From the IMG/VR virus record IMGVR_UViG_3300046333_000090: 64,000 bases of DNA; one strand, written 5' to 3'. How positions within the stretch are numbered: position 1 is the stretch's first letter; every line of letters starts with the position of its first letter. Position numbers and translations under genes: made by a program. Below, piece after piece: positions 3,001 through 58,371 of the stretch. The notes beneath the pieces were generated by a model that worked only from the letters and a program-made list of their open reading frames with translations, ran no database searches and was not told where the DNA came from. This stretch comes from a virus.

Positions 3001-5347
3001 ATTCATTAGTGTAGTTGTTATTGGTATTGTCATTGTTAGAATATCTGACTGCCAATACATTACTCACATTACTATATCCTAAAGATAGTTCAGGATCATC
3101 ATAACGAATACCATAGTCAGAAGGAACTACATCAGTTTTTGACTTAATGTACTTTATTACTTTATTTTGTATTAAAGTATTAGTAGTAATGGTTGGGGTG
3201 AGTAATTCTACGGTATAAGAAACTAACCCATTCCCAGTAAAGGGCACTCCTAGATTTACTAAAGTTATTGTGTTAATCCCTGTAAATGTACCAACAAAAC
3301 TTCCTACACTGGTCTGCACTAGCGTATCTCCACTATAAATTTCATTAATATTTTGATTTGGCAGTACGCCCACATTATTTGTGAACGATATTGAACTGTT
3401 TCTTATAATAGAAATAGTTTTGTTGGTGGTGTCTTTGATATTCTTATCTGTTAATGGCACATATAAGTTTTTGTTATTACTTTTTAGTATAGTAACAGAT
3501 TTGTAGATGGTATCAATATTTTGAGAAGTAAAGCTATTGGATAAAGAAAGAGTAGTATTATTTAAAATGCCATCAACTGTGGTAATAACCCCAGCCAAAT
3601 TTATATTACTTCCAACATGTAATTCTGATATAAATTTAGAATTAATACCCGTTAAGGTTGTGCCATTGACATTGAAGTTGCTACCAGTCAAAACAAATTC
3701 TGTTTTTAATGTTGATGCCGCAAATCCGACTCTACCAATACTTCTAATATCATCAATCAAGTAATCTCTTATTTCCAATATATTGTTGATGATATTGTTT
3801 TTTGAGTTAATAATTGGTTCGTTCAAAATAAATGTACCTGTATTGTTCTCCAACGTAATCATATCACCAACTACTGAATATACATATCCAGAAGAACCAG
3901 AAATTGTTCCAGTCACATGATCGCCATAGACGATATTAGTTAATGCCCCACTTACTCTTAAATCGGTGTGAGTGGATAAATCTATCACATACAGTCTCAC
4001 CGAATTTTGAAGATAATTAATCGATACGGCTTTGGCTACCCCAATAATCTTCGATGGGGTAGCTACAGTGCTAGTACTATATAAATTTATATTTTGTGGT
4101 GATGATGATACATCTAACATACCGCCTATGCCACTAATTTCAAGATAAGACCCACAATCTATGAATGATTGGTGATTTATTCTTCGGTTTGTTTTGGTGG
4201 GTAGGTCTACGGTTATTAATTGTTTATCTGGAAACTTGTAATTGTACCCCTTTACTACAGCATCGCCAGCAGACAATTCCACAGAAAAGTAATCATTTCC
4301 ATTGATCTTATTTGGTTCACTCACCAATGGATCTACATTGATTACTGTTCTATTTTGATCGTCTACCTCATTTACTTTATATACACCATTATTAAATAAA
4401 TTATCTAGTGTTGGGTATACATTAATGTCAAAATCCTTGAGTACATAATTGCCAGCTTGTTTGTAAGTCTGAACCGCAATTGCATCAATAATTTGAGTAT
4501 TTACACTTACATCGATTTTGTAATTGATATTTCCATTCAATATTTGTACTAACTCTGTGTAATTAGTAGGAATGGCGGAACCATAAGTAAGTTTTACTAC
4601 ATTTGCTAATATTTGTAATCTGTCTGCTCCAACAGCAGCACAATTATTGAATCCATTCGCATTATCTGTTAAAGTTGCGTCATCTACAGCAGTGACAAAT
4701 TTAGGAGTAAATTGTATCCCAATACTATAATTACCTGTGTTGGTGTATTGATCTAATACCACACTAGTATTGTTCAGGTTGGTATAGTACCCGTCCCAAT
4801 AAAATGTGCCCTGATTTACGTGTACTATACTTGAATTATATAGTGTACTATTCGTGCTAATAGTTGTGGCAAATTTAATATTATTGAATGACAATATTTC
4901 ATTATCTGCAAATTTGTTATATTGTACTCCCATCAATACAGTACCACCACTAACATATTTTACATATAATGATGGTTTGGATATAGTACTATTCTTTTTG
5001 CTTACATATGCAACTACTATGGCTTGTACGTTTGTAGTATTACCTTTAATAGTTTTGCCAATTAGTTTATTTATTTCTACATCGGGTGTATTGCCATTAA
5101 ATAGATCATTTAATAATACTACATCTACCTCTTTGTCATGAGTAATCTCACCACCAGAAATCAAATCTCCATTTTGGTATTGTACATCAGATAAAGATTT
5201 TATTTGATTCTGAGCAATACTTTGTAGATTATTTAATTCTCTAGCTTGGATCGGATATCCTGGTTTAAATAATACTTGGTGATAATTTTTGGATTTGCCA
5301 AAATCATCATGATACGGTGGGATGTTTGTGTTGATTTTGTCGGTCAT
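1..5347 (-). CDS. Very large virion structural/baseplate protein (DUF4815/VrlC-like, cyanomyovirus type); 3' end runs off the window
   Basis: ATG at 5347; N-terminus MTDKINTNIPPYHDDFGKSKNYHQVLFKPGYPIQARELNNLQS matches the PY.DDF...LFKPG.P.QAREL motif of these proteins. Absent from the ORF track, probably because it is open at the window edge. Confidence 0.8.
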   Translation of the reverse strand, partial: MTDKINTNIPPYHDDFGKSKNYHQVLFKPGYPIQARELNNLQSIAQNQIKSLSDVQYQNGDLISGGEITHDKEVDVVLLNDLFNGNTPDVEINKLIGKTIKGNTTNVQAIVVAYVSKKNSTISKPSLYVKYVSGGTVLMGVQYNKFADNEILSFNNIKFATTISTNSTLYNSSIVHVNQGTFYWDGYYTNLNNTSVVLDQYTNTGNYSIGIQFTPKFVTAVDDATLTDNANGFNNCAAVGADRLQILANVVKLTYGSAIPTNYTELVQILNGNINYKIDVSVNTQIIDAIAVQTYKQAGNYVLKDFDINVYPTLDNLFNNGVYKVNEVDDQNRTVINVDPLVSEPNKINGNDYFSVELSAGDAVVKGYNYKFPDKQLITVDLPTKTNRRINHQSFIDCGSYLEISGIGGMLDVSSSPQNINLYSTSTVATPSKIIGVAKAVSINYLQNSVRLYVIDLSTHTDLRVSGALTNIVYGDHVTGTISGSSGYVYSVVGDMITLENNTGTFILNEPIINSKNNIINNILEIRDYLIDDIRSIGRVGFAASTLKTEFVLTGSNFNVNGTTLTGINSKFISELHVGSNINLAGVITTVDGILNNTTLSLSNSFTSQNIDTIYKSVTILKSNNKNLYVPLTDKNIKDTTNKTISIIRNSSISFTNNVGVLPNQNINEIYSGDTLVQTSVGSFVGTFTGINTITLVNLGVPFTGNGLVSYTVELLTPTITTNTLIQNKVIKYIKSKTDVVPSDYGIRYDDPELSLGYSNVSNVLAVRYSNNDNTNNNYTNECFDNITISNNSLFNVGDIVYNKNIKAKIIGITGNILNLIYYSSNHFNIADTAFNWNTATTSTVTNVYRGNYIDVTGNYKLIKNSNNNIHDIDKLTIINNSNIPTNHLVVVFDYFNTSIGDITSIDSYINPTDDIETNIIDLRYYAKSPTIVGLGNLLSPYSLLYSGLNPSTRLLKLRSFPAPSTILKGDYNYYTPRTDLLIIDTTGKCRIISGISANNPNNPDLPQDCLAIATLQIPPVVKAISDIKTVVYPNKRYTMEDIGNLEKRIKNTENEIALNKLESTANNTVLLDNTGIVRLKTGFVVDEFLNYQLSDISNLAYKSSINPDDQTLVPKTASKNIKLKINNGSYKISNNLISLPYTEATFIEQNNKNYVLKVNPYALNNWEGVINTHPSSDNWFYGDYSDKENWLPITSNKSTKKNTNTNNYLKQQTIKINIDALKPNTKLDVYINSKNITDLVVPSTCVIKKDGTNGTNTISFVVGEKLLWRNVNTRVLTGSRYQPTVLSNYISAKVDSLSSGVYTGTTNTIKINWNDGYQFNVEDIGVGTYIIGQTSGAIAILTNTDIISDDNGNFAGNVFIPNPTKSDYKFSVGTLVLSAIGNTTFAKTIFQCGGNSNIETKDIISLSIPENNDTNIIQNQINGNIINNNGWNSPITQSFNNNIVGGCFITSLELFFNKKDNFIPLIVQLRTVENNYPTETILPYSEISVNTKDIVTSSDGNTPTIIKFNNMVYLKDNTQYCICVLSNSNNYEIFSNDFEVKNTTDIVSIKNPNISNLYVPQNYKNWIADNKKSIKFKLNKAKFSLTGNINFNNEDNLPEIIGNYITTTKNSNLVSVYSKNHGMHTTNNSVTIKNIVSNYIPTILTDIISDTQYTVATTIPVETPELVPQFINNLPISITNPGYIKIDDEILSYINVNNGTKLITIPAGGRGKNNTSIIQHLTNSVVEIYSINGIPLVELNKTFTSIVPIDLDNFGVYAISSANYTNVCGGDNISVSVNHQY

Positions 5348-5373
5348 ACTAGAAATTTTTGTATTCTTTTTAA

Positions 5374-5405
5374 TATTTAGTTTAATATAAATATCTGTAT
5401 AAATA
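5374..5405. promoter_or_regulatory. Divergent T4-type late promoters (TATAAATA on + at 5386 and 5398; CTAAATA on - at 5374-5380)
   Basis: gp55-type consensus directly upstream of two divergent structural genes. Confidence 0.65.
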
Positions 5406-5419
5406 TTAAATTTAATAAA

Positions 5420-6895
5420 ATGAGTTCAATCATTACAAATCAATTTCGTACTGCTATTGCAAAGAATTTTTTATCTCTTGCCGCCACTGACAATTTATAT
5501 CTCTTCATCTCTAGACCACAACAATGGCAGTCTGAAGAGTATGCTGGTAATCCTGCCGTCAGTGAATTAACCCCCCCAGTGCCTAATGACAATTCTGCTG
5601 AATTTGTGAATAGTCACAATAATATGATCGGGATTAAGAAAATTAATTCTACCGATCTCTCGCTTGTGATTAAGAAAATTGTATGGCAACCAGGCGTAAT
5701 TTATGATATGTATAAGCATAATTACTCTCAAAATAATCCTACCGCCACTGGTTCTACTATTTTGGCGGATAGTAATTTTTACATAGTCAACAGCCAATTT
5801 CAAGTTTTTAAATGTATATATAACGGACAAACCCCAGAAACTCCATTAGGGATACCAACTACTATCGGGTCGGAACCTACTGTAATAGGTTCTTCTACCG
5901 CTATTGTCACTACGTCAGATGGATATAAATGGAAATATTTATTCTCTCTGACCACTAATCAAGTATTGAAATTTGCAAATAACAATTATATTCCTGTACT
6001 AGTAGATAGTGTTGTTAGCATTGCTGCTGCTCCTGGTTCAATTTCTCAATTGAATATCCTTAATAGAGGTACAAACCTGACTCCAGGTACATATTACTCC
6101 AGAATTATTGGTAATGGTGAAGGTGGGATTATTAGAATTATTGTTCCCAATGATACTTTAGACCCATTTAATCAAAAAATTGGTAGTGTATCTGTTATTT
6201 CTGGTGGTACTGATTATACTTATGCTAAAGTTAATTTGGGTGCTGTCTTTAGTGACATTCTGTGTACCATTCCTTCTAATATTGGCACTATTAATAATTC
6301 AGTACAGTATTTGGAAGTAATTATTCCACCAATATTAGGGCATGGGAGCGATCCGGAAAAAGAATTGTTCGCTCATCGCGTAGTTATCGCTCCCAAATTA
6401 GAATCTATCGATCAAGATATTCCCGTAAATATCCAGTATCGTCAGTTTGGTTTGTTCATAAATCCAAAAGTTGCTGGCACGGATACATTATTTGATGCTG
6501 CTACTGGTAATTGTACCACTCGTATCAAATTTCCTAATACTTTCGTAGGTACGTTTGTGTTAGGTGAGCGAGTTGTGCAAGCTATAACTGGCGCAATTGG
6601 TAATGTAGTGGCGTGGGATGTAGTTAATAAGATATTGTCTGTGTATCAGAATCAGTTTCAAAACAATTTTGTTGTTGATGACTTTGCTGGCGCAAATACT
6701 GTAACTGCTGGTGGGTTGACTGGAGTTCCTGAAATTGCTTTTAATGGTGTATTGAATTACAATACTTTCATTAATGGATATTCCACTAGCGAGATCGAAA
6801 AATATTCTGGTGAAATACTTTACATAGAAAACAGGGGGGCGATCAATAGAAGTCTCGATCAAACAGAGCAGATACTTCTCATAATTGAACTCTGA
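5420..6895 (+). CDS. gp8: Baseplate wedge subunit gp8
   Basis: MSSIITNQFR..., YDMYKHNY, DGYKWKYLF and C-terminal GEILYIENR...EQILLIIEL motifs. Confidence 0.9.
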   Translation: MSSIITNQFRTAIAKNFLSLAATDNLYLFISRPQQWQSEEYAGNPAVSELTPPVPNDNSAEFVNSHNNMIGIKKINSTDLSLVIKKIVWQPGVIYDMYKHNYSQNNPTATGSTILADSNFYIVNSQFQVFKCIYNGQTPETPLGIPTTIGSEPTVIGSSTAIVTTSDGYKWKYLFSLTTNQVLKFANNNYIPVLVDSVVSIAAAPGSISQLNILNRGTNLTPGTYYSRIIGNGEGGIIRIIVPNDTLDPFNQKIGSVSVISGGTDYTYAKVNLGAVFSDILCTIPSNIGTINNSVQYLEVIIPPILGHGSDPEKELFAHRVVIAPKLESIDQDIPVNIQYRQFGLFINPKVAGTDTLFDAATGNCTTRIKFPNTFVGTFVLGERVVQAITGAIGNVVAWDVVNKILSVYQNQFQNNFVVDDFAGANTVTAGGLTGVPEIAFNGVLNYNTFINGYSTSEIEKYSGEILYIENRGAINRSLDQTEQILLIIEL

Positions 6896-6952
6896 TGACA
6901 AATAATTAAAATTTGTGTTATAATAGGAATGTTGTCATTCCTATTATTTTTT

Positions 6953-7156
6953 ATGGATAAAAATAAGAAATACTATTACACTTATATCATTCGACACAAA
7001 AATGGGCAATATTATGTAGGCAGAAGGACTTCTAAAGTAGAACCACAATTAGATTCGTACATGGGATCTGGCGTGTGGGTAACTGCAATTAAAGATAGGG
7101 ACTCTATTGAAAAATATATAATTGCTGAGTACAATTATGCTATAAGAACATCATAA
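6953..7156 (+). pseudogene. Truncated GIY-YIG (Seg-like) homing endonuclease
   Basis: YYYTY...YYVGRR...DSYMGSG motif, stop after ~67 aa; paralogue of 34741 and 44722. Confidence 0.7.
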
Positions 7157-7164
7157 CACAGATA

Positions 7165-8868
7165 TCAAATAAATGGGAAAATCTGCACCACCTCAGCAAA
7201 CCAATTATTTATTTCGTTAGAACCTATTTCTTCGTAGCTATATTGAGTATTCGCATCAATCCAAAAAGATGTTAAAGTTTTCATAGAATAATATACTATT
7301 TCACTTCCTACATATTCATAATTTCTAATTTCATTAGAACCACTAGTGGTAAAGGTTACATTAAATTTGTTCAATTGTAAATAACCAGAACTCATGAATT
7401 CACTAGTGTCAACAACATTAATGACTCTTTGACCAATTAGCAAATCGGTAGTCATCGTAGTAATGGCAGGAGTGGGGTATTCATAATTACCACCAATATC
7501 GTTAACTAATTTTATTTTTTCTGCACCAAAGCTGTATTTTGTAGAAATATCGATCTGATTTTGGATGTCGCGCAAATTAGTAACATTAGACGAACCATAT
7601 GGTTCGATATCGTAGTCTAATACATGAGTAGTAGTTTCATAAACTACATCATTACCAGCAAATAATACATTAGTGGTAGTGTTATTAGTATATCCTACAA
7701 AATTGACATAATTATTGGCATCTTTATTGTATCTTATAGATGGAGGTGCAGAATATGTAATATCATCAGGTACTTGTGGATCTATATTTGGAGTGACAGT
7801 AGTGGTATAGTTATAAGTATGTAACAGCCAGCCATCAATGACACGAGAATTAAGAGTAGTAGCAGGAGGGTTAGTGATAGGAATTGGTGAATAGAACCTA
7901 TTAAATTTAATAGTTATTGCCCCAAAACTAGGAGAAACATAAGTAAAATCGTTATTTTTGGGGGTAATGTTACTAACGCCGAAACCAACAATATTAGTTT
8001 TGATGGGGATATCCAGCCAAGAAGTCACTACTATAGGATTATCTATATTACTGATACCATCTACAGGACTATCATTTTTGACAAATGTTGCACCATTGAG
8101 ATCTGCAATAGATGAGATGTGACTATTAGCAGTAGATAATATACTATTAGCAGTAGATAATCTGTTATTTGGGGTGGAGATGGGGACAATTTGCGAATTA
8201 TCCACATATTTGGTATTATTTTGTTCAGTATAGGGATTTGGCAATTTTAGATCATAATTACTAAAATTACTCACCGAATCTGAATTTGTAGGTAAATTTG
8301 GTGTAAATTTGGCATAATACGATATATTTTTATAATCTGTGGAATATTTACCAACTACTCCAGCACGATCTAATATTCCTTTTCCAGCTAATATTATGAC
8401 TTGAATTCCATTAACTGTGATAACCTGATTGACAGTAAAAGTAGCAGTGCCAGTATATTCAAAATATGAATATTTGTCAAACAAATTAACCACTTTTGTA
8501 ATAATTCCATTATTAAATGTATCACCCAATTTTAGTAAGTTTTTATTAGACCTTGGGTTTATAATGTAGTCAAATATGACTGCATTAGTAGTCATATCTG
8601 CATAATAAATGGTAGCATTAGGATTAGGTATTACAGATATAGCAGTAGCAACTAATTGAATAGTGCCTTGTAAATCTAATGTATAGTTATCTACGTTTTC
8701 TGGGGTAGATTCTGTTCGAGTATCTGCTTTATTAGCCGTGGACAGATTAAGAGTTAATTGATTTGATGGGATGACGAAAACATGGGCAAATGTGGTGTCG
8801 TCAGTATAAAATATGGGTAGGGGTGGGTTAATTGTTAAAGTTTTTTTGTAACTATTCTGGAGCGTCAT
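7165..8868 (-). CDS. Hypothetical virion structural protein
   Basis: 567-aa Thr/Asn-rich ORF directly downstream of gp25. Confidence 0.55.
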   Translation of the reverse strand: MTLQNSYKKTLTINPPLPIFYTDDTTFAHVFVIPSNQLTLNLSTANKADTRTESTPENVDNYTLDLQGTIQLVATAISVIPNPNATIYYADMTTNAVIFDYIINPRSNKNLLKLGDTFNNGIITKVVNLFDKYSYFEYTGTATFTVNQVITVNGIQVIILAGKGILDRAGVVGKYSTDYKNISYYAKFTPNLPTNSDSVSNFSNYDLKLPNPYTEQNNTKYVDNSQIVPISTPNNRLSTANSILSTANSHISSIADLNGATFVKNDSPVDGISNIDNPIVVTSWLDIPIKTNIVGFGVSNITPKNNDFTYVSPSFGAITIKFNRFYSPIPITNPPATTLNSRVIDGWLLHTYNYTTTVTPNIDPQVPDDITYSAPPSIRYNKDANNYVNFVGYTNNTTTNVLFAGNDVVYETTTHVLDYDIEPYGSSNVTNLRDIQNQIDISTKYSFGAEKIKLVNDIGGNYEYPTPAITTMTTDLLIGQRVINVVDTSEFMSSGYLQLNKFNVTFTTSGSNEIRNYEYVGSEIVYYSMKTLTSFWIDANTQYSYEEIGSNEINNWFAEVVQIFPFI

Positions 8869-8874
8869 GTCTGT

Positions 8875-9243
8875 TTATCTATCTCTCACTAAGTTTACAG
8901 TGAATGAATCTGTTTCTTCCAGTTGTTTAATAGTGTATTCTAGATAAACAGATAATGTAATATTATCATCTTCTAAAATAACTTCTATTTTTTCTATAAT
9001 AACACGATTCTCCCATAACGTCAAGGAGGTTCTGATCTCTTCAAGTATTTCGTTCCCAAGATTGTTGTCTGCAACTTCAAATAAATATTTTGATAGTGAT
9101 GTACCGTAATAAGGTTGGAAAATTGCACTACCTCTTTCGGTGAGTATAATATTTTTTACTGATGCTTTTACGGCTGCTTTTGTATTTAAGATTGTGATAT
9201 CGTGACTATTAGTTTGGCTGAATGATAAATCCAAGTCTGGCAT
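8875..9243 (-). CDS. gp25: Baseplate wedge gp25 (GPW/gp25 family)
   Basis: DLDLSF...AVKASVKNIILTERG...FQPYYG...LFE...WENRV. Confidence 0.9.
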   Translation of the reverse strand: MPDLDLSFSQTNSHDITILNTKAAVKASVKNIILTERGSAIFQPYYGTSLSKYLFEVADNNLGNEILEEIRTSLTLWENRVIIEKIEVILEDDNITLSVYLEYTIKQLEETDSFTVNLVRDR

Positions 9244-9283
9244 AATTTTTATGTTTTGATACTAATAGTCATATTTAGAGTTT

Positions 9284-10012
9284 CTATGCGGTGTAGGGCA
9301 TTCTAGACCCCTCTGGGAGCATAATAGGTTGTTCCCAAGATGCTTGATTTTCTAAATGTGCTTCAATTAATTGGTCTAGTTTTATCTGATGTTTTGGTGA
9401 GAATTGGATAGTATGATCTGGCAACCAATTAGGAGTTTCTTTGAGGTATCGTTCTGGCAATACTAAACCTGATTTGATGCCGAACTGATAGTGAATATTT
9501 TGAAGGTAATTTATTGATTGTGAACCAAAACTTATTCTCTCACCATTTACTCTTGGCATACGAATTTGTGTTTTATAGCTACTACTACCACCATTAGCAC
9601 ATTTTATACCAATAGGGAGTCCAGATGACTTCTTCATTAATGCTATATTAAACCATTGAGTGACTACTTCTAAATTAGATAATTTGTTATTACTAGGATC
9701 TCCGTCGATATGATTGATCACCCAATTATTATTAGTCTTCAATCCAACTATTAATTCATGAATTTTTACAGTTTGTCCATTTTTATATGTTAGAAATCTA
9801 CCTGTATTATTAGGATTAAAATTATATAGTTTTAATAGATCTACTTTATCAAGATCTATAGAATTAGTATATAATATACCAGTATTAGTATTGAGTACAT
9901 ACAGTTGGTCATAAGTAAAGAATTGATTATATATTAAATTGTAACCATTGTCTACATTATGATGAGGTTGATTGAACTGCCATAAATCCAGCGTTGTGTC
10001 GTAGTAAATCAT
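9284..10012 (-). CDS. HNH endonuclease, expanded family copy A (intact)
   Basis: INHIDGDPSNNKLSNLEVVT HNH motif; start set at MIYYD by alignment with paralogues. Confidence 0.85.
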   Translation of the reverse strand: MIYYDTTLDLWQFNQPHHNVDNGYNLIYNQFFTYDQLYVLNTNTGILYTNSIDLDKVDLLKLYNFNPNNTGRFLTYKNGQTVKIHELIVGLKTNNNWVINHIDGDPSNNKLSNLEVVTQWFNIALMKKSSGLPIGIKCANGGSSSYKTQIRMPRVNGERISFGSQSINYLQNIHYQFGIKSGLVLPERYLKETPNWLPDHTIQFSPKHQIKLDQLIEAHLENQASWEQPIMLPEGSRMPYTA

Positions 10013-12019: not shown

Positions 12020-12445
12020 TTATATATCAGATTTCTTATTTATAAATTTTAATAACTGCGCCGTACTTCCAACGAAAATACTATTATTAGTAGTATTGTT
12101 AGTATTGCCGCCATTCAATCCTTTGACCTTTTTGACTTCATTCGCCAATTTGATCAAAGATAAATTCAGTTCAACCGCCTCTCTCACCAACCCACCAGCG
12201 ACTTCATATGCGCGGGGAGTTTCTGATGCTTGGGCGACATCTATTGCATTGTCGATCAATCCGTTTAGTTTTTCTGAAAGAGCATGTAAATTGCTTCTGG
12301 TACGAACATAATCTACATCTAGATTAGTATTTATAGATGTGTCACCAATAGTAGTAGTAATAGGTTCGGCATCTACAACCTCTACTGGGGTAATAGACAC
12401 ATTTTCTATGTCCAATGATTCTGTAAGTTTATCAAATATTGACAT
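12020..12445 (-). CDS. gp16: Terminase small subunit gp16
   Basis: DYVRTRSNL...PRAYEVAG...NNSIFVGSTAQLLKFI, cyanophage gp16 signature. Confidence 0.9.
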   Translation of the reverse strand: MSIFDKLTESLDIENVSITPVEVVDAEPITTTIGDTSINTNLDVDYVRTRSNLHALSEKLNGLIDNAIDVAQASETPRAYEVAGGLVREAVELNLSLIKLANEVKKVKGLNGGNTNNTTNNSIFVGSTAQLLKFINKKSDI

Positions 12446-16157: not shown

Positions 16158-17018
16158 TTAAAAGTTATTCATAAAATTACTTGTCACGATTTTGCCTAAA
16201 GCATTGACTTCGCTCTGATCTACAATAGTATCTGCCTTCTTCTCTAGTAAATCATTTATATCCATCAAAATATTAGTATCATCAGTGGTCTTAAATTTGG
16301 CAATACTCCAGACAGTAGAACCACTAATTATAGGTAAAATCTCATTCACCGCACCATTCATATCAATTAATTTCAATTCTCTAGTGACTATATTCCAGTC
16401 AACTACCTTACCATTAACAGTTCCATTATTTGCCGCTTCGCCAATAATAAAATCACCAACTCCAGCATCTAATGTGATAGTAAGTGCAGTGCTAAACCCG
16501 TTTGCTTCTCGTTCCACAATGTCAGTATTAATACGTTGATTGCTATATTTGTAAGCTTCACAACTTAATTTGTACGTTTGTATCTTACCGAACTGTCTAT
16601 AGGGGTTCTCTTCTTCAACAAACTTTATTTGAAACAGTTCTCTAGAAACGATAGAATATATAAGATCCCCTTCCAATGGTCTGGTTAGTGATGAAAGATT
16701 GTTGTCCAATACCACTTGCTCAAACTTAGTTTTAGAGATGGTGTATATTGCTTCATCCTTAACTTCTATCCCAAACTTACCAAAAATGTTAGCTTGATTC
16801 CCAAACCCAGAGTTTTGATTGTCCATATATGCTTCTAATAAAAAAGATTCCGTGTATTTGGACAGAATATCCTCACCAAATAAAGTATCAAAATTGACAA
16901 TTGTGCGAGGAAGATATAGAATGTCCTCACCCATGATATAGATGGATTCAGTGATGATGTTTTCATATAATCTCTGCTCATTTTCCGAAGAATTTCTAAA
17001 GTACGGTGATTTAGCCAT
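16158..17018 (-). CDS. gp14: Neck protein gp14
   Basis: EQRLYENIITESI...YLPRT...FGED...KFGIEVKDE...RPLEGDLIY. Confidence 0.93.
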   Translation of the reverse strand: MAKSPYFRNSSENEQRLYENIITESIYIMGEDILYLPRTIVNFDTLFGEDILSKYTESFLLEAYMDNQNSGFGNQANIFGKFGIEVKDEAIYTISKTKFEQVVLDNNLSSLTRPLEGDLIYSIVSRELFQIKFVEEENPYRQFGKIQTYKLSCEAYKYSNQRINTDIVEREANGFSTALTITLDAGVGDFIIGEAANNGTVNGKVVDWNIVTRELKLIDMNGAVNEILPIISGSTVWSIAKFKTTDDTNILMDINDLLEKKADTIVDQSEVNALGKIVTSNFMNNF

Positions 17019-17235
17019 TGTAACCCCAAATATTGGTATTAATATTTATAAAAAAACTCCCCATTATTAACAGGGAGTTATTAAATTTAATAATTATATT
17101 CTTCCAAAGTTTGTCTAGCTGCATCTTCTGCGGTTAACCCATTATTAATTAAATACCTGCGGCGCGATACTAGTTTACAAATCATTTGCTTATCGTTTTT
17201 TATACTAAAAATCAGTGTTTTTAATTTGGTGTCCA

Positions 17236-20715: not shown

Positions 20716-21092
20716 GTTTGATATAATGCAGTAAATTCCGCACCATTCGCAGTAACCATAATGTCTTCATATATTTTTTGAGACAATTCTTCTAATTTAC
20801 CTTCTGGTAAGTCTTTCCAGACTTCATCTGGTTTTGTATTAACTACCAGATCTACTTTTTTAATTTGTGAATAATTATTAGCAGGATCGACTCCTCTCAA
20901 CTCACGAACTTTATGGTTCGGCATATAATGAAGTTGTTTGTTTAGTATCCCATATTCTTTAATCAAATCACAAATTTCTGGTACTGTAATACCTAACTGC
21001 ATAGCCATATCTGTACGACTACAACTTGTTTTTGCTAATAAAATTATTTCTTCTTTTGTTGGTTTCATGTTCTTAATTAAATATGTTTCCAA
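20691..21092 (-). CDS. Hypothetical protein, possible N-terminal HTH
   Basis: SRTDMAMQLGITVPEICDLIKEYGI resembles an HTH. Confidence 0.5.
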   Translation of the reverse strand: METYLIKNMKPTKEEIILLAKTSCSRTDMAMQLGITVPEICDLIKEYGILNKQLHYMPNHKVRELRGVDPANNYSQIKKVDLVVNTKPDEVWKDLPEGKLEELSQKIYEDIMVTANGAEFTALYQTCVGYVKL

Positions 21093-22117
21093 GTACGTCT
21101 TTCTACCATATCCGAAACAGTTTTTCTATCCAAACTATAACGTCTAGATAATTCTCCTTTACTTACTCCTTCACTCCATAATCTTCTTATTTCTAATACT
21201 TGTTCGTCAGATACTTTACTATTCTTGTGCGAACTTCCAACCATTGTACGAGATTTGATGACAACACCTGGGAATATTTTACGCTCCACATGTTTAAAGC
21301 ATTCTCGTCTCAATATTCTCCCTACTTGTACTTGACTGATTTGGAATTTCTCACCAATTTCTTTTTGTGTCCATTTATGTATATCATACAATTCTACAAT
21401 ATGGAGAATATCTTCTTCACTTAAATCAGAATTAGTTCGGAATTTCTCGGCTTTATCATTATTATTGTCTATTCTGGAACCTTCAAATAAATTATCTGGG
21501 TGAACATTTAATTTATTATCATCTTTATGACATAAACATATATCTGAAGTTAATACTACCTTTGTTAGTTGATATATGATTCTATGTATTTTATGAGATG
21601 ATGGTTTTCCATTTTTACATAAAGTGATTTTAGGATAGCCATTAGTGGTACTATACTTACACAACCAAGTATTTTCATCTATTACATCTATCTTACCTTC
21701 CAATTTTTCGATCATATCTTGCAAATATATATCACTCAATCCTAATTTATTTACAATTGGCACACCAAAAATATTAAAATTAATATCTAATTCAATATAT
21801 GCACGAACTACTCGCACAATATTATATTTATCAATTAATCGATTTATTGTAGATGGCGAACTATTAAGTAATTTAGCTGCTTCTGATTGATGCCAATTAC
21901 ATTCTTCCAATGCTTCCATCAACTGTTCTCGACTAATGCTGCTGAATTTAGGTTTTTGTAGAAATATTAGTTCCTTTTTATTAATCCCCAATCGTTTAAT
22001 GTGAAGATGAATACCAGTTACACTGTATCCTAATTGTTTAGCTATATCAGAACCACTATGTACAGTTTTAGCAATATCAAGCAATTCTTTTTTCGTTAAA
22101 GTTATTTTATTAGCCAT
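21077..22117 (-). CDS. HNH homing endonuclease with multiple HTH domains
   Basis: HKIHRIIY...LCHKDDNKLNVHPDNLFEGSRIDNNND plus N- and C-terminal HTHs; directly downstream of the TerL IntN-bearing gene. Confidence 0.85.
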   Translation of the reverse strand: MANKITLTKKELLDIAKTVHSGSDIAKQLGYSVTGIHLHIKRLGINKKELIFLQKPKFSSISREQLMEALEECNWHQSEAAKLLNSSPSTINRLIDKYNIVRVVRAYIELDINFNIFGVPIVNKLGLSDIYLQDMIEKLEGKIDVIDENTWLCKYSTTNGYPKITLCKNGKPSSHKIHRIIYQLTKVVLTSDICLCHKDDNKLNVHPDNLFEGSRIDNNNDKAEKFRTNSDLSEEDILHIVELYDIHKWTQKEIGEKFQISQVQVGRILRRECFKHVERKIFPGVVIKSRTMVGSSHKNSKVSDEQVLEIRRLWSEGVSKGELSRRYSLDRKTVSDMVERRTWKHI

Positions 22118-22157: not shown

Positions 22158-22319
22158 TCATTCTTTGTCAAGTACTATTTCTGAATCAATATCTATGCAC
22201 TCTTGCTTCTGCTCTAATATGTTCTGTTCTTTTAATAAATTGTATAATTCTCCTAATTGTATGTCTCTCTCAACCCCCTCTAGATCGATGATACGAACAA
22301 TACTACAAGATGAAAGCGA
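22158..22319 (-). other. Split-intein N-fragment 2 (short, Ser1; 53 aa including an acidic tail)
   Basis: EQEFE|SLSSCSIVRIIDLEGVERDIQLGELYNLL; same site and pattern as the AceL/GOS TerL short IntN. Confidence 0.82.
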
Positions 22320-24569
22320 CTCAAACTCCTGCTCGAATTGTTTAGCACTCGTATTCGCGATGGTCATTCGTTTAAATTCCGCATCTCTTCCTGGAATCAT
22401 ATCCCATGTAATCTCTACTGGCACATACTCATTCTTACCATTCTTTGCATCAACAAAAATACGATAAAATAAGTTTAGCCCACGGGGGGTTTGTTCACCA
22501 ACAAATCCATTATAGATAACGGAATGACACCAAGGATCGTTAGGAACATTATCTAGAGAAAAATCATATAACTGTTCGATGTGGTCGTCATTAATCCGAC
22601 GAATTTTAGTCCACAACAAATCCGGTCTAACATTCAATTCAACAAATTCGCTAACACTACTATTAATTACAGATTGAATGATTGGTAATTTTTTAAGAGC
22701 ATTTTGTCGATTCATGTGTACATATTTGTGTTGTCCCTCCCCATTAAAAGCAAAATATTGTTTAATATATTTCTTTTGTGTTTCTAATGGGAGATGTTGT
22801 TTAATGAATGGAATAAAAAATGGAATAGAATCACTCTGTTTACGAAATTTTCTGATATTAGTCTGATAGCAATTCCATTGTTGTTTGTGAGGATGTTTAA
22901 AATTAATTATTTCAAAAAATTCTGGGGTGTAGCAATTTGGTATCTTCAGCAAAGTGCGACGAGAGTATCTCATTTTTCTTCTCATATGCCAATAATATCT
23001 TCGTTGTTCATATAACCCCTTTTTGATAGAATTAACCACACCAATATTCAATAATAATAGGTGTATTTGTTCCAATAGGTCTTCATTAGTATTAGTGATG
23101 TATATATCACCATAATTGTTATTTTTTTTACGATGATTCACTAGTGCCATACTATCGAAGCATCCTTGGAGAAAGGTAACAGTATTAATTTTAGACCACC
23201 GAAGGGGAATATCAGTTAGACCATTTCCAAAAGTAGTATACTTATCAGGAGAAGTGTACTTCAATTTTTTTAATACACTGGCTAGTTCAATTGAATCTAT
23301 AATGTAATTAACCCCATCAAACTCATAATCCAGTCCAATATTTTTTATGGCATCATCATAACAATCCTCATCCAAATATCCACTATCCGTAATACGAAGA
23401 GTCAGAGTAATAAATCTGCCATCAGTTATATAACCACTACCAGCATATATACCAAAAAAATAAGCAAATTCTGGAGTAACTATTGGGAATTTTTCAGAAT
23501 CTAATGTATCCAAATTACCAAATATTTGAGTATTATATCTGACTGCAATAAAATCATTAGGTTCCAACTCAGATGCCCTAAACCAACCATATTTGCCTTG
23601 CTTACAGGCATAAAGTTTATGAGTAGTCGAACACTCCAATTCAGTAAAATTAGTATATATTTTTCTAACGTTTGATTTACCGTTATTACACATAACAGTA
23701 CCTTTATTATTTCCCTTCATACCCACTAATTCATATGGTGGGATATGATATGATTTTTTCTCTAATTGATCTTTAATAAAAGTTTCGATGCGAGTATAAC
23801 CTTTAGTGGTGAGAATATATGTATTTTTCACTACACAAGAAGTGATAATTAATTTAGATTCTTTAGATGACGAAATAGTAGGATATACCGAGGTCATAAA
23901 CTCTTCTTGGATACCATTAGGGACGAATGCGAATTCGTCGCAAAATACGATATTGAAGGTAGACCCGCGAACAGAGGTGGCACTGGTGGATGAGGCTAAT
24001 ATTTGAGAACCATTTTCAAGTTCGATATGTGTTTTATTCCATTGTATTACTCCTTGTTGTAACCACATTGGCAAATTTTCATATGCCATTTGTAGTCTAC
24101 CTAATAGTTCCATAGATAGATCTCTTTTGTTTGCTAATATTGCAATATTTTGATGAGGTTTAAATAGTGCGACCCAGAGGGCATAGCAAATCATCGTAGT
24201 CGAGTTATGTGAAACTATATTATTGGTGATGTAGAGGTCATCTTCTACATTCAATAAATCATACATATTTTCAATATTATCTGATTCATTAATAGCAAGA
24301 ATTATATCAGGATACAAATATCCACCATCATCCATTACCAATATCTCGTCCCCAACTATTAAATCTACTAGTTTAGTTTCTTCATACTCATCTTTATCAT
24401 TCAATCTAATTAGAATATGATCGTCAGCACAAGATAGATGATATTGGGTGGTGTATACGTTCCAAACATTATATTTAATAGTTTGCCCTACTCCAGCAAA
24501 ATCTTTATATCCAGTAGGCGTTAGTACTTGCCAATCATTAGTATATTTTTCTTGTACAAACTCAGCCAT
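22158..24569 (-). CDS. gp17: Large terminase gp17, middle fragment: IntC - ATPase part - cis intein - extein - IntN
   Basis: Exteins STTMICYALW...ILANK...LENGS...VRG...FCDEFAFVP...IITS|TPRGLNLFY...FEQEFE; intein motifs at both ends and internally. Confidence 0.92.
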   Translation of the reverse strand: MAEFVQEKYTNDWQVLTPTGYKDFAGVGQTIKYNVWNVYTTQYHLSCADDHILIRLNDKDEYEETKLVDLIVGDEILVMDDGGYLYPDIILAINESDNIENMYDLLNVEDDLYITNNIVSHNSTTMICYALWVALFKPHQNIAILANKRDLSMELLGRLQMAYENLPMWLQQGVIQWNKTHIELENGSQILASSTSATSVRGSTFNIVFCDEFAFVPNGIQEEFMTSVYPTISSSKESKLIITSCVVKNTYILTTKGYTRIETFIKDQLEKKSYHIPPYELVGMKGNNKGTVMCNNGKSNVRKIYTNFTELECSTTHKLYACKQGKYGWFRASELEPNDFIAVRYNTQIFGNLDTLDSEKFPIVTPEFAYFFGIYAGSGYITDGRFITLTLRITDSGYLDEDCYDDAIKNIGLDYEFDGVNYIIDSIELASVLKKLKYTSPDKYTTFGNGLTDIPLRWSKINTVTFLQGCFDSMALVNHRKKNNNYGDIYITNTNEDLLEQIHLLLLNIGVVNSIKKGLYEQRRYYWHMRRKMRYSRRTLLKIPNCYTPEFFEIINFKHPHKQQWNCYQTNIRKFRKQSDSIPFFIPFIKQHLPLETQKKYIKQYFAFNGEGQHKYVHMNRQNALKKLPIIQSVINSSVSEFVELNVRPDLLWTKIRRINDDHIEQLYDFSLDNVPNDPWCHSVIYNGFVGEQTPRGLNLFYRIFVDAKNGKNEYVPVEITWDMIPGRDAEFKRMTIANTSAKQFEQEFESLSSCSIVRIIDLEGVERDIQLGELYNLLKEQNILEQKQECIDIDSEIVLDKE
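22491..23837 (-). other. Contiguous intein (449 aa) in TerL: Cys1, C-terminal Gln, Thr+1, degenerate LAGLIDADG domain
   Basis: IITS|CVVKNTYILT...TTHKL...LYDFSL...GFVGEQ|TPRG. Confidence 0.85.
24204..24569 (-). other. Split-intein C-fragment 1 (122 aa, ends SHN, Ser+1) at the TerL Walker A site
   Basis: VLTPTGYKDFAGV...CADDH...MYDLLNVEDDLYITNNIVSHN|STT. Confidence 0.88.
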
Positions 24570-24734: not shown

Positions 24735-25433
24735 TCAGAGCATAATAGGTTTATCCCAAGTAGCTTGATTTTCTAGATGCGTTTCAATAAGTTGTTCTAG
24801 TTTTGATTGATGTTCTGCTGTGAATACAATATTAGGATCTGGCAACCAATTAGGTACTTCTTGTAAGTATCTTTCGGGAGTGACTAATCCAGATTTTACT
24901 CCAAACTGATAATGCAAGTTTTGTAAGTAATTGAGATCTTTATAACAAAAATTTATATGTTTACCATTTACTCTTGGCATAGCAATTTGTGTTATATAGC
25001 TACCATTATTATATGTTGCACCAATAGGGAGTCCAGATGACTTCTTTTGTATTAATATGTTAAACCATTGAGTAACTACTTCTAAATTAGAACGTTTATT
25101 ATTACTAGGATCGCCATCTATATGATTAATTACCCAATTAGCATTAGTTTTATATCCATATACTAACTCATGAATTCTTACAGTTTGTCCATCTTTTTTT
25201 GTACTAAATCTACCTCCACTATTATGATACCAATTATATAGTTTTAACAATTCTACTTTATCAAGATCTATTGTGTTAGTATATATTTTACCAGATTTAG
25301 TATTCAGTACATGTAACGTTTCATCTACAAATAGTTGATTGTAAGTAAGTTTACCTGCATATAGTTTATTGAGATTATGGTGAGGTTGATCGAATTGATA
25401 GAAATTGAGTATTTTGTCGCAGAAATGTATCAT
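24735..25433 (-). CDS. HNH endonuclease, expanded family copy C (intact)
   Basis: MIHFCD...QFDQPHHN; INHIDGDPSNNKRSNLEVVT. Confidence 0.88.
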   Translation of the reverse strand: MIHFCDKILNFYQFDQPHHNLNKLYAGKLTYNQLFVDETLHVLNTKSGKIYTNTIDLDKVELLKLYNWYHNSGGRFSTKKDGQTVRIHELVYGYKTNANWVINHIDGDPSNNKRSNLEVVTQWFNILIQKKSSGLPIGATYNNGSYITQIAMPRVNGKHINFCYKDLNYLQNLHYQFGVKSGLVTPERYLQEVPNWLPDPNIVFTAEHQSKLEQLIETHLENQATWDKPIML

Positions 25434-25435
25434 TT

Positions 25436-25807
25436 TTAATAATAATATATAGAATATATCTCAATCTGACGCATCCGATTTAGAAAATAGGTTTTTTCAT
25501 TTTCAGTTTCAACTATCGCAACCGACGCATAAAATTCAACACAATTCCCTAAGTCAATTCTTTCAACTTCTATATATTCTTTTAGTCCCGAACCAATTTT
25601 AAATATTTGATCTTTTAATATTATACCAGATTCACCATTAACACTGATATTAATAATTTTGATATATTTTTCGTTTAAATCTTCAACAATTCCAGAGTAT
25701 CTTTGAGATCTATTTTTGTACTTAACTAAGTTGCCATTAATAATGTTCAATATATTTTTTCTCGATGTGTATTCTAATAATATAACATTATTGGTGAGAT
25801 ATGTCAA
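25436..25807 (-). CDS. Hypothetical protein
   Basis: 123-aa ORF; no TerL or intein motif. Confidence 0.5.
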   Translation of the reverse strand: MTYLTNNVILLEYTSRKNILNIINGNLVKYKNRSQRYSGIVEDLNEKYIKIINISVNGESGIILKDQIFKIGSGLKEYIEVERIDLGNCVEFYASVAIVETENEKTYFLNRMRQIEIYSIYYY

Positions 25808-25844: not shown

Positions 25845-27068
25845 ATGTTAAAATTACTTCCGTCATTACAGCAAAATATAGGAAATTTGGTAGAAACACC
25901 AGATGGTTTCGAGAAATTTATGGGAGTGCAGAAAATTTATAGAAATAAATATATAGAATTAGAATTCTTAGACGACAATAAATTAGTTTGCTCACTTAAT
26001 CATCCGATAAACACCACAGAAGGTATAATATTAGCTAAAGATCTCACTAAAACTATAGAAATAATTGGAAAAGTAAATAATACTTTTCTTAAAACAAAAA
26101 AAACTATAAGAAAAAAAATAGAATTATATGATATTGTTAATTCTGGCAAGAATCATTGGTATTATGCGAACGATATATTAAATAAAAACTGTAGCTTCAT
26201 AGGTTCATCGCTCACCCTTCTTAATGCCAATAAATTAGCAGCATTAACCCATAAAGAACCAATAGAAAGAAATGACAATATAGTTGTCTACGCAAAACCA
26301 AATCCTACGCATAGATATATGATTTGTGCAGACACCGCAGAAGGTGTTGAAAAGGATTATTCAGTAGCAATGGTGTTTGACATCACTACTGTACCATACA
26401 CCATAACAGCTATTTATAAAAACAATAATATTGCACCAATAGTATTCCCCAACATAATATTGAAATTGGCGAATGAATATAATAAAGCTTACGTTCTTGT
26501 AGAGTTAAACAGCATTGGATCACAAGTAGGAGATATTCTACATTACGATCTAGAATATAGCAACCTACTTATGACAGCCACCGTGGGACGAAACGGGTTA
26601 ATTCTAGGTCAAGGATTCGGTAATAAGTGCAAATTTGGATTACAAATTACTAAAACTACAAAACGACTAGGTTATAGTAACATGAAATCTTTGATTGAAG
26701 ATGATAAATTACTAATAGAAGATTTTGGTATTATTAGTGAATTATCAACATATGTAGAAAAAGGGGATTCTTATGCAGCAGATGATGGTAGTAATGATGA
26801 TCTAGTAGCTTGTATCGTATTATTTTCTTGGTGTGTTACCCAGCCGTATTTCAAAGAACTTACAGATTTAGACGTAGCAAAAGATATTCGGGAATTACAC
26901 AGACAAGAAATAGAAGACGACATGGCGGTATTAGGTGCTTTATTGATAAATGGAGAAGAATTAGAAGATGGTATTGTGGAAGAAGGTGGAGATCTGTGGT
27001 GGAATGCTAAGTTAACTGACAGTTATTATGAGTACGGGTACGAGGTGCCAGTTATTTATTACTTTTAA
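25845..27068 (+). CDS. gp17: Large terminase gp17, C-terminal fragment: IntC (25845-26189, 115 aa, ends NKN, Cys+1) plus nuclease domain
   Basis: VETPDGFEKFMGVQK...SLNHP...LYDIVN...DILNKN|CSFIGSSLTL; RuvC-like ADTAEG..DYS, VELN..G, NDDLV; late promoter CTAAATA at 25814. Confidence 0.92.
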   Translation: MLKLLPSLQQNIGNLVETPDGFEKFMGVQKIYRNKYIELEFLDDNKLVCSLNHPINTTEGIILAKDLTKTIEIIGKVNNTFLKTKKTIRKKIELYDIVNSGKNHWYYANDILNKNCSFIGSSLTLLNANKLAALTHKEPIERNDNIVVYAKPNPTHRYMICADTAEGVEKDYSVAMVFDITTVPYTITAIYKNNNIAPIVFPNIILKLANEYNKAYVLVELNSIGSQVGDILHYDLEYSNLLMTATVGRNGLILGQGFGNKCKFGLQITKTTKRLGYSNMKSLIEDDKLLIEDFGIISELSTYVEKGDSYAADDGSNDDLVACIVLFSWCVTQPYFKELTDLDVAKDIRELHRQEIEDDMAVLGALLINGEELEDGIVEEGGDLWWNAKLTDSYYEYGYEVPVIYYF

Positions 27069-27120: not shown

Positions 27121-27525
27121 TCAGAGTATAATTGGCTGCTCCCAAGTAGATTGATTCTCTAGATGTGCTTCAATTAATTGATCTAATTTTGTTTGATGTT
27201 TTGGTGAGCATTGTATGGTAGAATCGGGTAGCCAATTAGGAACTTCTCTGAGGTATCTTTCTGGAGTAACTAATCCTGACTTTACTGCAAAATGATAATG
27301 TATGTTTTGTAAGTAATTTATATATTTAGAACCAAAAGTCATAGCTTTACTATTTTTTCTTGGCATAGCAATATTTGTTAGATAACTACCGCCACTAACA
27401 ATTATTTATAGATCGTCTATAAATAATTGATTATATGTTAATTTTAATTTTTATTTTCCATTATCTACATTATGATTAGGCAGATTGAACTGATAGAGAT
27501 TTAATGTTTTGCAGAAGTGGATCAT
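27121..27525 (-). pseudogene. HNH family copy D, internally deleted (HNH core lost)
   Basis: MIHFCKTLNLYQFNLPNHN start and QNIHYHF...HLENQSTWEQPIIL end retained. Confidence 0.8.
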
Positions 27526-27564: not shown

Positions 27565-27864
27565 ATGCAAAAAAAACAGGTTTATATTATCTTTAATGAA
27601 TTATTAAATTTAATAAAAATAGGAGTCACCAACAACATTCCTCGCAGACTAAGGCAACTTGAGTGCAGTTCTGGATGCAAACTAGAACTATACTATCATA
27701 CTGAACCGATATATAACGCAACCAAAATAGAAAAGTCACTGCATCAGTATTTTAATTTAAAACGAAAAGAAGGCGAGTACTTTTTTATAAGCGCAGAAGA
27801 AGCAAAAGAAAAATTGTTATTTATGATATCTAACTTGACTAAAGTATATACAGACAATTTATAA
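27565..27864 (+). CDS. T5orf172/Mug113-type GIY-YIG domain protein
   Basis: VYII...IKIGVT..IPRRLRQL...IEKSLHQYF...GEYF. Confidence 0.8.
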   Translation: MQKKQVYIIFNELLNLIKIGVTNNIPRRLRQLECSSGCKLELYYHTEPIYNATKIEKSLHQYFNLKRKEGEYFFISAEEAKEKLLFMISNLTKVYTDNL

Positions 27865-55449: not shown

Positions 55450-55887
55450 TTATAAATTTTTATAAATATTCTCCAAAGAATTTTTGATCGAAATCATCTC
55501 AGGAGAATTTTGATTATTATCCACCCCAACTTCTTGTAACACTCCAGTATATTCAACAGAATTGAGATACATATTGTAATATTCAAACATAGTAGGACTC
55601 ATATCTCCCCAGACTACTACATCTTTTTGATTCATATGAAACGTATTATCAGAACTATTACTCATCCACGGTGATAACTGGTAGTTCATAATCATCCGAC
55701 CACCAGAAATAATTGTTATTGGTCTAACCACCAGTGGATCGGTAATATAAAAAGACCCGTCTTCTTGTTCTTCAAGATCGTCTGGGATATTGACAAATCC
55801 AATAATTTCCTCATTTGTAACTAATTTAATAGCAGCAAAGAATTCTAAATCTTGATTTTCAGCTTTTGAGTCTGGAGTTAACATCAT
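55450..55887 (-). CDS. Conserved T4-like protein downstream of uvsW (Sm-like fold)
   Basis: FAAIKLVTNEEIIG...DP.V...PWM..S.D..F. Confidence 0.7.
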   Translation of the reverse strand: MMLTPDSKAENQDLEFFAAIKLVTNEEIIGFVNIPDDLEEQEDGSFYITDPLVVRPITIISGGRMIMNYQLSPWMSNSSDNTFHMNQKDVVVWGDMSPTMFEYYNMYLNSVEYTGVLQEVGVDNNQNSPEMISIKNSLENIYKNL

Positions 55888-58271: not shown

Positions 58272-58371
58272 GAATGCCCCAAAACCTTTAATAAATTTAT
58301 AGAATGGCACAAAGTATCTCATTACTATTTAGAGGGGGTCACAGGGCATTCTATACCCCTCTCAGAGCATA

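Follow-up and report, generated by a model that had tools for sequence, protein, structure and literature searches.

A large terminase of a T4-like myophage, probably assembled from three polypeptides by two paralogous atypically split inteins

The DNA analysed here (the window) was the 64,000-nt stretch of IMG/VR virus record IMGVR_UViG_3300046333_000090, and its open reading frame (ORF) 22158-24569 (-) was found to encode the middle part of the large terminase subunit (TerL, gp17). This polypeptide carries the C-terminal fragment of one split intein (IntC-1) at its N-terminus and the N-terminal fragment of another (IntN-2) at its C-terminus. Its anatomy and that of its relatives indicate that gp17 probably arises from three separate polypeptides through three splicing reactions, with two paralogous split inteins between which mis-pairing is probably low. 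The source of the window was a T4-like myophage with a G+C content of about 31%; the recognisable genes were those of gp20 portal, gp23 capsid, gp6, gp8, UvsW, tail sheath, and PolB. Megablast against 50,697 phage records revealed no close relative.

The segment limits of the middle ORF (803 aa; stop codon at 22158-22160) were set by tblastn with the intact gp17 of Prochlorococcus phage P-SSM4 and by landmark extraction. The ORF begins with IntC-1 (24204-24569 (-); aa 1-122), the C-fragment of the atypically split intein that occupies the P-loop site of TerL (site 1), which ends in SHN and is followed by Ser+1. TerL extein a (23838-24203 (-); aa 123-244) runs from just past the Walker A Lys, through Walker B (DEFAF), up to IITS, and corresponded to P-SSM4 gp17 residues 88-209 (62% identity, no indels); the tblastn alignment began at residue 85, and gp17 Ser88 was flush with the first residue of the extein. 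Next comes a contiguous LAGLIDADG intein (22491-23837 (-); aa 245-693, 449 aa) with Cys1, a C-terminal Glu-Gln and Thr+1; it matched Pfam Intein_splicing and LAGLIDADG_3, and its limits were flush with gp17 residues 209|210. TerL extein b (22320-22490 (-); aa 694-750), from TPRG to QEFE at the end of the ATPase domain, was equivalent to gp17 residues 210-266 without indels. The ORF closes with IntN-2 (22161-22319 (-); aa 751-803, 53 aa), which has Ser1 right after EFE, a core of ~30 aa and an acidic tail. All three extein junctions were flush with intact gp17, without indels, and the extein of the middle ORF matched Pfam Terminase_6N (E 3.9e-10). The mapping onto gp17 confirmed the order given in a preliminary description made from the sequence alone, with IntC at the N-terminus and IntN at the C-terminus of one polypeptide. 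A start of IntN-2 at the Cys of SLSSC was also considered and was rejected, since Ser1 aligns with the Cys1/Ser1 of all other IntN parts at the same insertion site and keeps the extein flush.

The third piece (25845-27068 (+)) consists of IntC-2 and the remainder of gp17. IntC-2 (25845-26189 (+), 115 aa) belongs to the atypically split intein at the second insertion site (site 2, EFE|C); it ends in NKN and has no penultimate His. TerL extein c (26190-27068 (+)) is the nuclease (RNase H-like) domain, opens with Cys+1, and matched Pfam Terminase_6C; it aligned with gp17 residues 267-550 (48.6% identity, E 3e-85), and its Cys+1 aligned exactly with gp17 Cys267. The junction residues, Ser+1 after IntC-1 and Cys+1 after IntC-2, were as previously described. 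The second and third pieces lie head to head on opposite strands. A TAAATA-like late-promoter core was present 25-36 nt upstream of the start codon of both pieces, a weak hint of late expression of the two; the full TATAAATA motif showed no enrichment, and a sigma-70 promoter scan stayed at background level.

The N-terminal gp17 segment (piece 1) was not found in the 64-kb window by a Walker A regular expression or by tblastn with P-SSM4 gp17 and with the N-piece of a relative, L003; tblastn with P-SSM4 gp17 also showed no second gp17 copy in the window. In L003, the N-piece lies directly after a gp16 homologue and ends in RQSGK, followed by a 30-aa Cys1 IntN (L003:19625-19714). This N-piece is broken about six codons before the split intein by a stretch of ~61 nt (L003:19546-19607) that changes the frame and holds a TAA stop and seven consecutive G, and the gene calls P0177, P0179 and P0180 end at the same gap. 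In the uninterrupted N-pieces P0178 and P0181, an IntN-1 of 30-31 aa directly follows RQSGK. The gp16 small terminase gene of the window (12020-12445 (-)) lies apart from all gp17 pieces, with gp6 next to it on the other strand.

A HMMER search with IntC-1 and extein a against 1.84 billion representative proteins gave 3635 matches, and the best 150 of them (50%-identity clusters) were classed by their gp17 segments. Twenty clusters of these 150 had both sites split, with an IntC...IntN middle piece. Site 1 was split in 56 clusters with no intein at site 2 and in 7 with a cis intein there; site 1 carried a cis intein in 8 clusters with site 2 split and in 11 with no intein at site 2. L003 had the same arrangement as the window, including the opposite strands and an intervening HNH gene, and its middle piece was 63% identical overall. 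The layout is real and not due to chance, and the three-piece form is common in uncultured T4-like phages. An assembly artefact as its source was rejected, because L003 and many clusters have the same layout. Simpler forms were also seen: L016 is a plain two-piece terminase (5047-5940 and 5953-7182) with Walker A intact and a 36-aa Ser1 IntN, and the P-loop intein of two cultured Vibrio phages, Kuja and VAP7, is in cis.

TerL in three pieces was also found in a cultured phage, Salicola phage SCTP-2 (MF360958.1, 440 kb), at loci 40-213 kb apart. The pieces (L018:3995-4888, L022 and L020) lie at about 429.5 kb, about 256.5 kb and about 216-218 kb of the record. The N-piece has a Cys1 IntN directly after RQLGK, gene 267 is an IntC-extein-IntN middle piece, and the last piece also holds a cis intein; the first split intein is at the P-loop, and the second break is at Walker B. 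In the record, gene 267 is annotated just as 'terminase large subunit', and the split and cis inteins are unannotated. A viable phage thus lives with such a topology.

Both IntC parts belong to the Cat/AceL/GOS family of atypically split TerL inteins. The best PDB match of each was CatC (6DSL_B, the consensus atypical TerL intein), with E 7.6e-8 for IntC-1 and E 5.2e-10 for IntC-2. Both are long IntC parts that hold HINT blocks B, F and G; each has a C[SA]xxH motif, a YD motif and an Asn at its end. A short IntN with block A only, directly after the N-extein, was found for IntN-2 in the window and for IntN-1 in L003, P0178 and P0181; IntN-2 aligned with the IntN parts of 28 other site-2 inteins. 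The PDB sequence search with the short IntN parts gave no matches, the queries being too short. The two IntC fragments, described earlier as related, proved to be so at a distance (BLASTP 32% identity over 41 aa, E 0.006; 18% identity over aligned columns).

A tree was built of 153 IntC parts, which came from both insertion sites and from split and cis inteins alike; on it, the insertion-site label changed once, at a branch with an SH-aLRT (Shimodaira-Hasegawa-like approximate likelihood ratio test) value of 95. The median IntC identity was 39% within site 1, 33% within site 2 and 24.5% between sites. On this tree, the two split inteins are old paralogues in the atypically split TerL family, one lineage per insertion site. 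The split/cis label changed at least 18 times, with many forks unresolved and at least 5 changes forced by well-supported branches. In the P-loop lineage, 16 cis forms were scattered singly among split forms, equal to 16 changes (at least 5 on well-supported branches), which suggests repeated switching between cis and split forms within that lineage.

The catalytic residues of the intein parts were present and conserved. Among 21 middle pieces, the invariant residues of IntC-1 were C47, A48 and H51 (block B), D104 (block F), and S120-H121-N122 (block G). Between the window and L003, the ratio of nonsynonymous to synonymous substitution rates (dN/dS) was 0.17 for IntC-1 and 0.25 for the cis intein; dS was saturated for the other segments, for which dN was 0.29 in IntC-2, 0.29 in the IntN-2 core and 0.30 in the nuclease extein. 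These rates argue for purifying selection on the intein parts.

From the parts described above, we infer trans-splicing activity and the following order of reactions. Piece 1 would run for ~90 residues from the N-terminus to the Walker A Lys and carry a ~30-aa IntN-1 with Cys1; piece 2 would be the product of ORF 22158-24569, and piece 3 would be IntC-2 with the nuclease domain. IntN-1 would fold onto IntC-1, and GK would be joined to STT, by which the P-loop would be rebuilt. The contiguous LAGLIDADG intein would be excised and IITS joined to TPRG. IntN-2 (Ser1) would fold onto IntC-2 (Cys+1), and EFE would be joined to CSF, linking the ATPase and nuclease domains. The IntC-extein-IntN order would be the outcome of two independent 'fractured gene' events in one gene, after which the partner pieces would have been relocated; pieces 2 and 3 now face each other on the two strands, with both piece 1 and gp16 away from them.

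Several observations weigh against maturation of this kind or against clean separation of the two pairs. Piece 1 of the window genome would lie outside the window, and its IntN-1 is deduced from the relative L003. IntC-2 ends in KN (window 26175-26189 (+)), the penultimate His being absent, and the cis intein ends in Glu-Gln, not His-Asn; given these two ends, splicing rates may be low. A KN/TN/LN ending is common to a clade of six sequences with 63-100% identity, and more distant IntC-2 homologues end in HN. Among 17 inteins at the same TerL site as the cis intein, 13 had HQ|T, 2 HN|T, 1 FQ|T and 1 EQ|T, so a C-terminal Gln is the norm in that family. As to the pairs, the IntN cores of both lineages shared one common hydrophobic pattern. 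With a hidden Markov model (HMM) of IntN-1, true IntN-1 parts scored 36-60 bits and three-piece IntN-2 parts 0.3-45.8 bits, some of the latter (44-46 bits) scoring like true IntN-1. P0103 and P0063 are three-piece relatives with an IntN-2 of this IntN-1-like kind. Three-piece IntN-2 parts were not less IntN-1-like than other IntN-2 parts by this HMM (one-sided p=0.25); those of the window (7.8 bits) and L003 (0.3 bits) were among the least IntN-1-like. In addition, the GOS and AceL IntN fragments have been reported as interchangeable (PMC11766414), so the family can be promiscuous and caution over orthogonality is needed.

With two different split inteins, the phage needs them not to cross-react much, and to that extent the earlier view that the pairs must be kept apart stood. 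Mis-pairing, which would give a cyclised middle piece or a fusion of pieces 1 and 3, is probably kept low in the clade of the window phage. It would be curbed by sequence divergence, by swapped nucleophiles (Cys1/Ser+1 vs Ser1/Cys+1) and by like negative charges on IntC-1 and IntN-2; mutual orthogonality of the two pairs, resting on these three traits, is plausible. The three are inherited lineage traits and not adaptations to the three-piece state. It is quite conceivable, if not to be counted on, that the inteins are strictly orthogonal and so offer a natural means of ligating three fragments in one pot by way of two IntN tags of ~30 aa.

The preliminary description proposed that selection keeps the pairs orthogonal through charge. 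The charges themselves were as described: IntC-1 was strongly acidic (net -18, isoelectric point (pI) 4.05), IntN-2 had its acidic tail (net -8, pI 4.20), and IntC-2 was Lys-rich (15 Lys, net +4, pI 9.14). Together with the net +3 of L003 IntN-1, these values would fit a tuning of both pairs by selection for charge complementarity, acidic IntC-1 with basic IntN-1 and acidic IntN-2 with basic IntC-2. IntC-1 and IntN-2 were both negative in 16 of the 21 three-piece middle fragments, and complementarity is documented for canonical split inteins (PMC2677866). We nevertheless consider such tuning unlikely. IntC-1 was just as acidic in two-piece genes, its median net charge being -13 in three-piece genes (n=20) and -12.5 in two-piece genes without a second split intein (n=56; Mann-Whitney U test, p=0.29). 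The charge of IntN-2 did not differ between three-piece genes and those with site 1 not split (p=0.68) and was not correlated with that of IntC-1. The 23 IntC-2 homologues were mostly basic (median +4, range -7 to +9), and in cis P-loop inteins of the same family the C-part was acidic and the first 30 residues were near neutral or slightly basic (-3 to +5). Split IntN-1 parts were near neutral, with net -1 in each of P0178 and P0181 besides the +3 of L003, so a match by charge is not obvious for pair 1. Conservation was poor in the acidic tail of IntN-2 (38% identity vs L003), and GOS-TerL tolerates trimming of the equivalent tail (PMC11766414). Association mainly via clustered hydrophobic residues is reported for atypically split inteins (PMC11923092, PMC11766414). 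The charges are therefore lineage traits, the same in two-piece genes; selection for orthogonality via charge was not borne out, and no sign of selection for orthogonality was seen that would go with the three-piece state.

The layout had also been likened to SICLOPPS (split-intein circular ligation of peptides and proteins), with cyclisation of the middle piece as a possible result. The likeness held for the IntC-extein-IntN order. It did not hold for the halves, which are not cognate because they belong to two lineages, one per insertion site, separated by the branch noted above, with 18% IntC identity and an IntN-2 score of 7.8 against 36-60 bits; the SICLOPPS analogy is thus good only for the order of parts. 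The structure of the middle piece was predicted with AlphaFold2. For the window (21-row alignment), the mean predicted local distance difference test (pLDDT) score was 71.5, with 63-87 over IntC-1 (lower in its last residues) and 58-71 over the IntN-2 core, which was modelled as a hairpin and helix (residues 757-781) with a disordered tail. For P0103, whose IntN-2 is IntN-1-like, the mean pLDDT was 75.3, with 83-95 over most of IntC-1 and 74-86 over the IntN-2 core. The runs were read by pLDDT alone, so that the difference between the two is a lead only and says nothing on docking.

One may imagine that IntN-2 pairs to some extent with IntC-1 of the same chain and gives a cyclised ATPase fragment (EFE-STT), as a by-product or a regulator. 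The topology allows the pairing, the IntN cores of the two lineages have one fold pattern, the promiscuity of IntN parts reported for the family (PMC11766414) points the same way, and in both models the IntN-2 of the lone middle piece was predicted to take a native-like hairpin and helix. We regard this as very improbable: apart from the non-cognate halves, the pairing would bring Ser1 and Ser+1 together in an active site that is made for Cys1, the two fragments both carry a strong negative charge, and cyclisation would destroy an essential, stoichiometric protein. We know of no natural cyclic protein made by an intein, which also counts against it. Even less credit can be given to the version in which the middle piece cyclises at a low rate and the phage thereby limits or times the supply of active packaging ATPase; if true, this would be the first natural intein-made cyclic protein.

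That one or more of the inteins are dead, the pieces being decaying gene fragments or parts of a non-covalent complex, would agree with the NKN and Glu-Gln ends, the scatter of pieces over both strands amid homing-endonuclease genes and the coding gap in the first piece of relatives, but is highly improbable in view of the conserved key nucleophiles, block B His and terminal Asn, the purifying selection seen, the KN/TN/LN ending common to six diverged sequences, the normality of a Gln ending in the cis intein family, the lack of another gp17 copy in the window by tblastn, and the viability of SCTP-2 with the same kind of layout.

Several genes for mobile endonucleases surround the TerL pieces. 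A free-standing HNH homing-endonuclease gene (24735-25433 (-); Pfam HNH_3, E 4.4e-8; PHROG HNH families) lies immediately upstream of the middle ORF, at its IntC-1 end. A second free-standing HNH endonuclease gene (21077-22117 (-); phrog_59, E 7.5e-31), with several helix-turn-helix domains by Pfam matches, starts 41 nt downstream of IntN-2. With HNH genes at both ends of the middle piece, each break keeps the 'fractured gene' signature (PMC2677866). Between the first HNH gene and the third piece is an ORF of 123 aa (25436-25807 (-)), which had no Pfam or PHROG match and has a homologue elsewhere in L003 (15568-15900). Downstream of the third piece are an 81-aa HNH remnant (27121-27366 (-)), a truncated paralogue of the C-terminal third of the 24735-25433 HNH gene with translations visibly alike over ~65 residues, and a GIY-YIG-like gene (27565-27864). 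L003 also has two copies of the same HNH family (9170-9805 and 16401-17099).

Elsewhere in the window, the SMC_N/Rad50-like ORF 48604-51333 (-), of 909 aa, has an insert of ~385 aa that resembles the intein in TerL of Synechococcus phage B23 (window 50062-51219 by tblastn, E 7e-17) and is probably another intein. In the UvsW helicase ORF 55884-58322 (-), of 812 aa, the ResIII domain runs to about residue 238 and Helicase_C begins at about residue 651, which suggests an insert of ~400 aa, possibly an intein.

Atypically split TerL inteins, fractured genes, SICLOPPS and engineered tandem trans-splicing have already been described. The comparisons with GOS-TerL, AceL-TerL and Cat rest on secondary sources. 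The window inteins share with these the TerL host, the short IntN, and the long IntC with blocks B, F and G; by description, pair 2 is like GOS-TerL in its Ser1, Cys+1 and 115-aa IntC (table of PMC11766414). GOS, AceL and Cat are described as two-piece terminases with a single split site, whereas in the window a second paralogous lineage is also split, at the P-loop (Cys1/Ser+1, 122-aa acidic IntC), and IntC-2 lacks the penultimate His. In the fractured genes of Dassa et al. 2009 (PMC2677866), a 'Terminase' locus with a 122-residue IntC and an unusual N-terminal split point was reported. As there, a split intein interrupts a conserved phage enzyme gene in the window, and a homing endonuclease gene stands free at the break. 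The cases of 2009 have one break per locus, three collinear ORFs (N-half, endonuclease, C-half) on one strand, and GIY-YIG or Vsr-like endonucleases; the window has two breaks, HNH endonucleases, pieces 2 and 3 on opposite strands, and no piece 1 within its limits.

SICLOPPS has the same order of IntC, cargo and IntN on one chain, but it uses the two halves of one intein, while the halves in the window come from two lineages. There is also a likeness to engineered tandem trans-splicing (PMC12707363), in which a middle segment carries the IntC of one pair and the IntN of the other and orthogonality is required. Those systems are laboratory designs; the arrangement in the window occurs in nature and relies on two atypical inteins that are related and have IntN cores of ~30 aa. 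In the full-text literature searched, we found no description of a natural protein built from three polypeptides by two split inteins, nor of a split P-loop TerL intein; the three-segment layout was described there for engineered proteins only.

On the proposed maturation, an essential virion-assembly enzyme would rely on three splicing events, of which two would join polypeptides from unlinked loci. Atypically split inteins are valued because an IntN of ~30 aa can be made synthetically, and a natural side-by-side pair on one protein would be an immediate candidate for joining three segments in tandem. The natural three-piece variants, dozens in number, would be a panel for specificity rules in a family that binds hydrophobically, spanning IntN-2 parts from nearly identical to IntN-1 in profile to very different. 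For the evolution of the family, the tree suggests repeated exchange between cis and split forms inside a single intein lineage; the insertion site changed only once.

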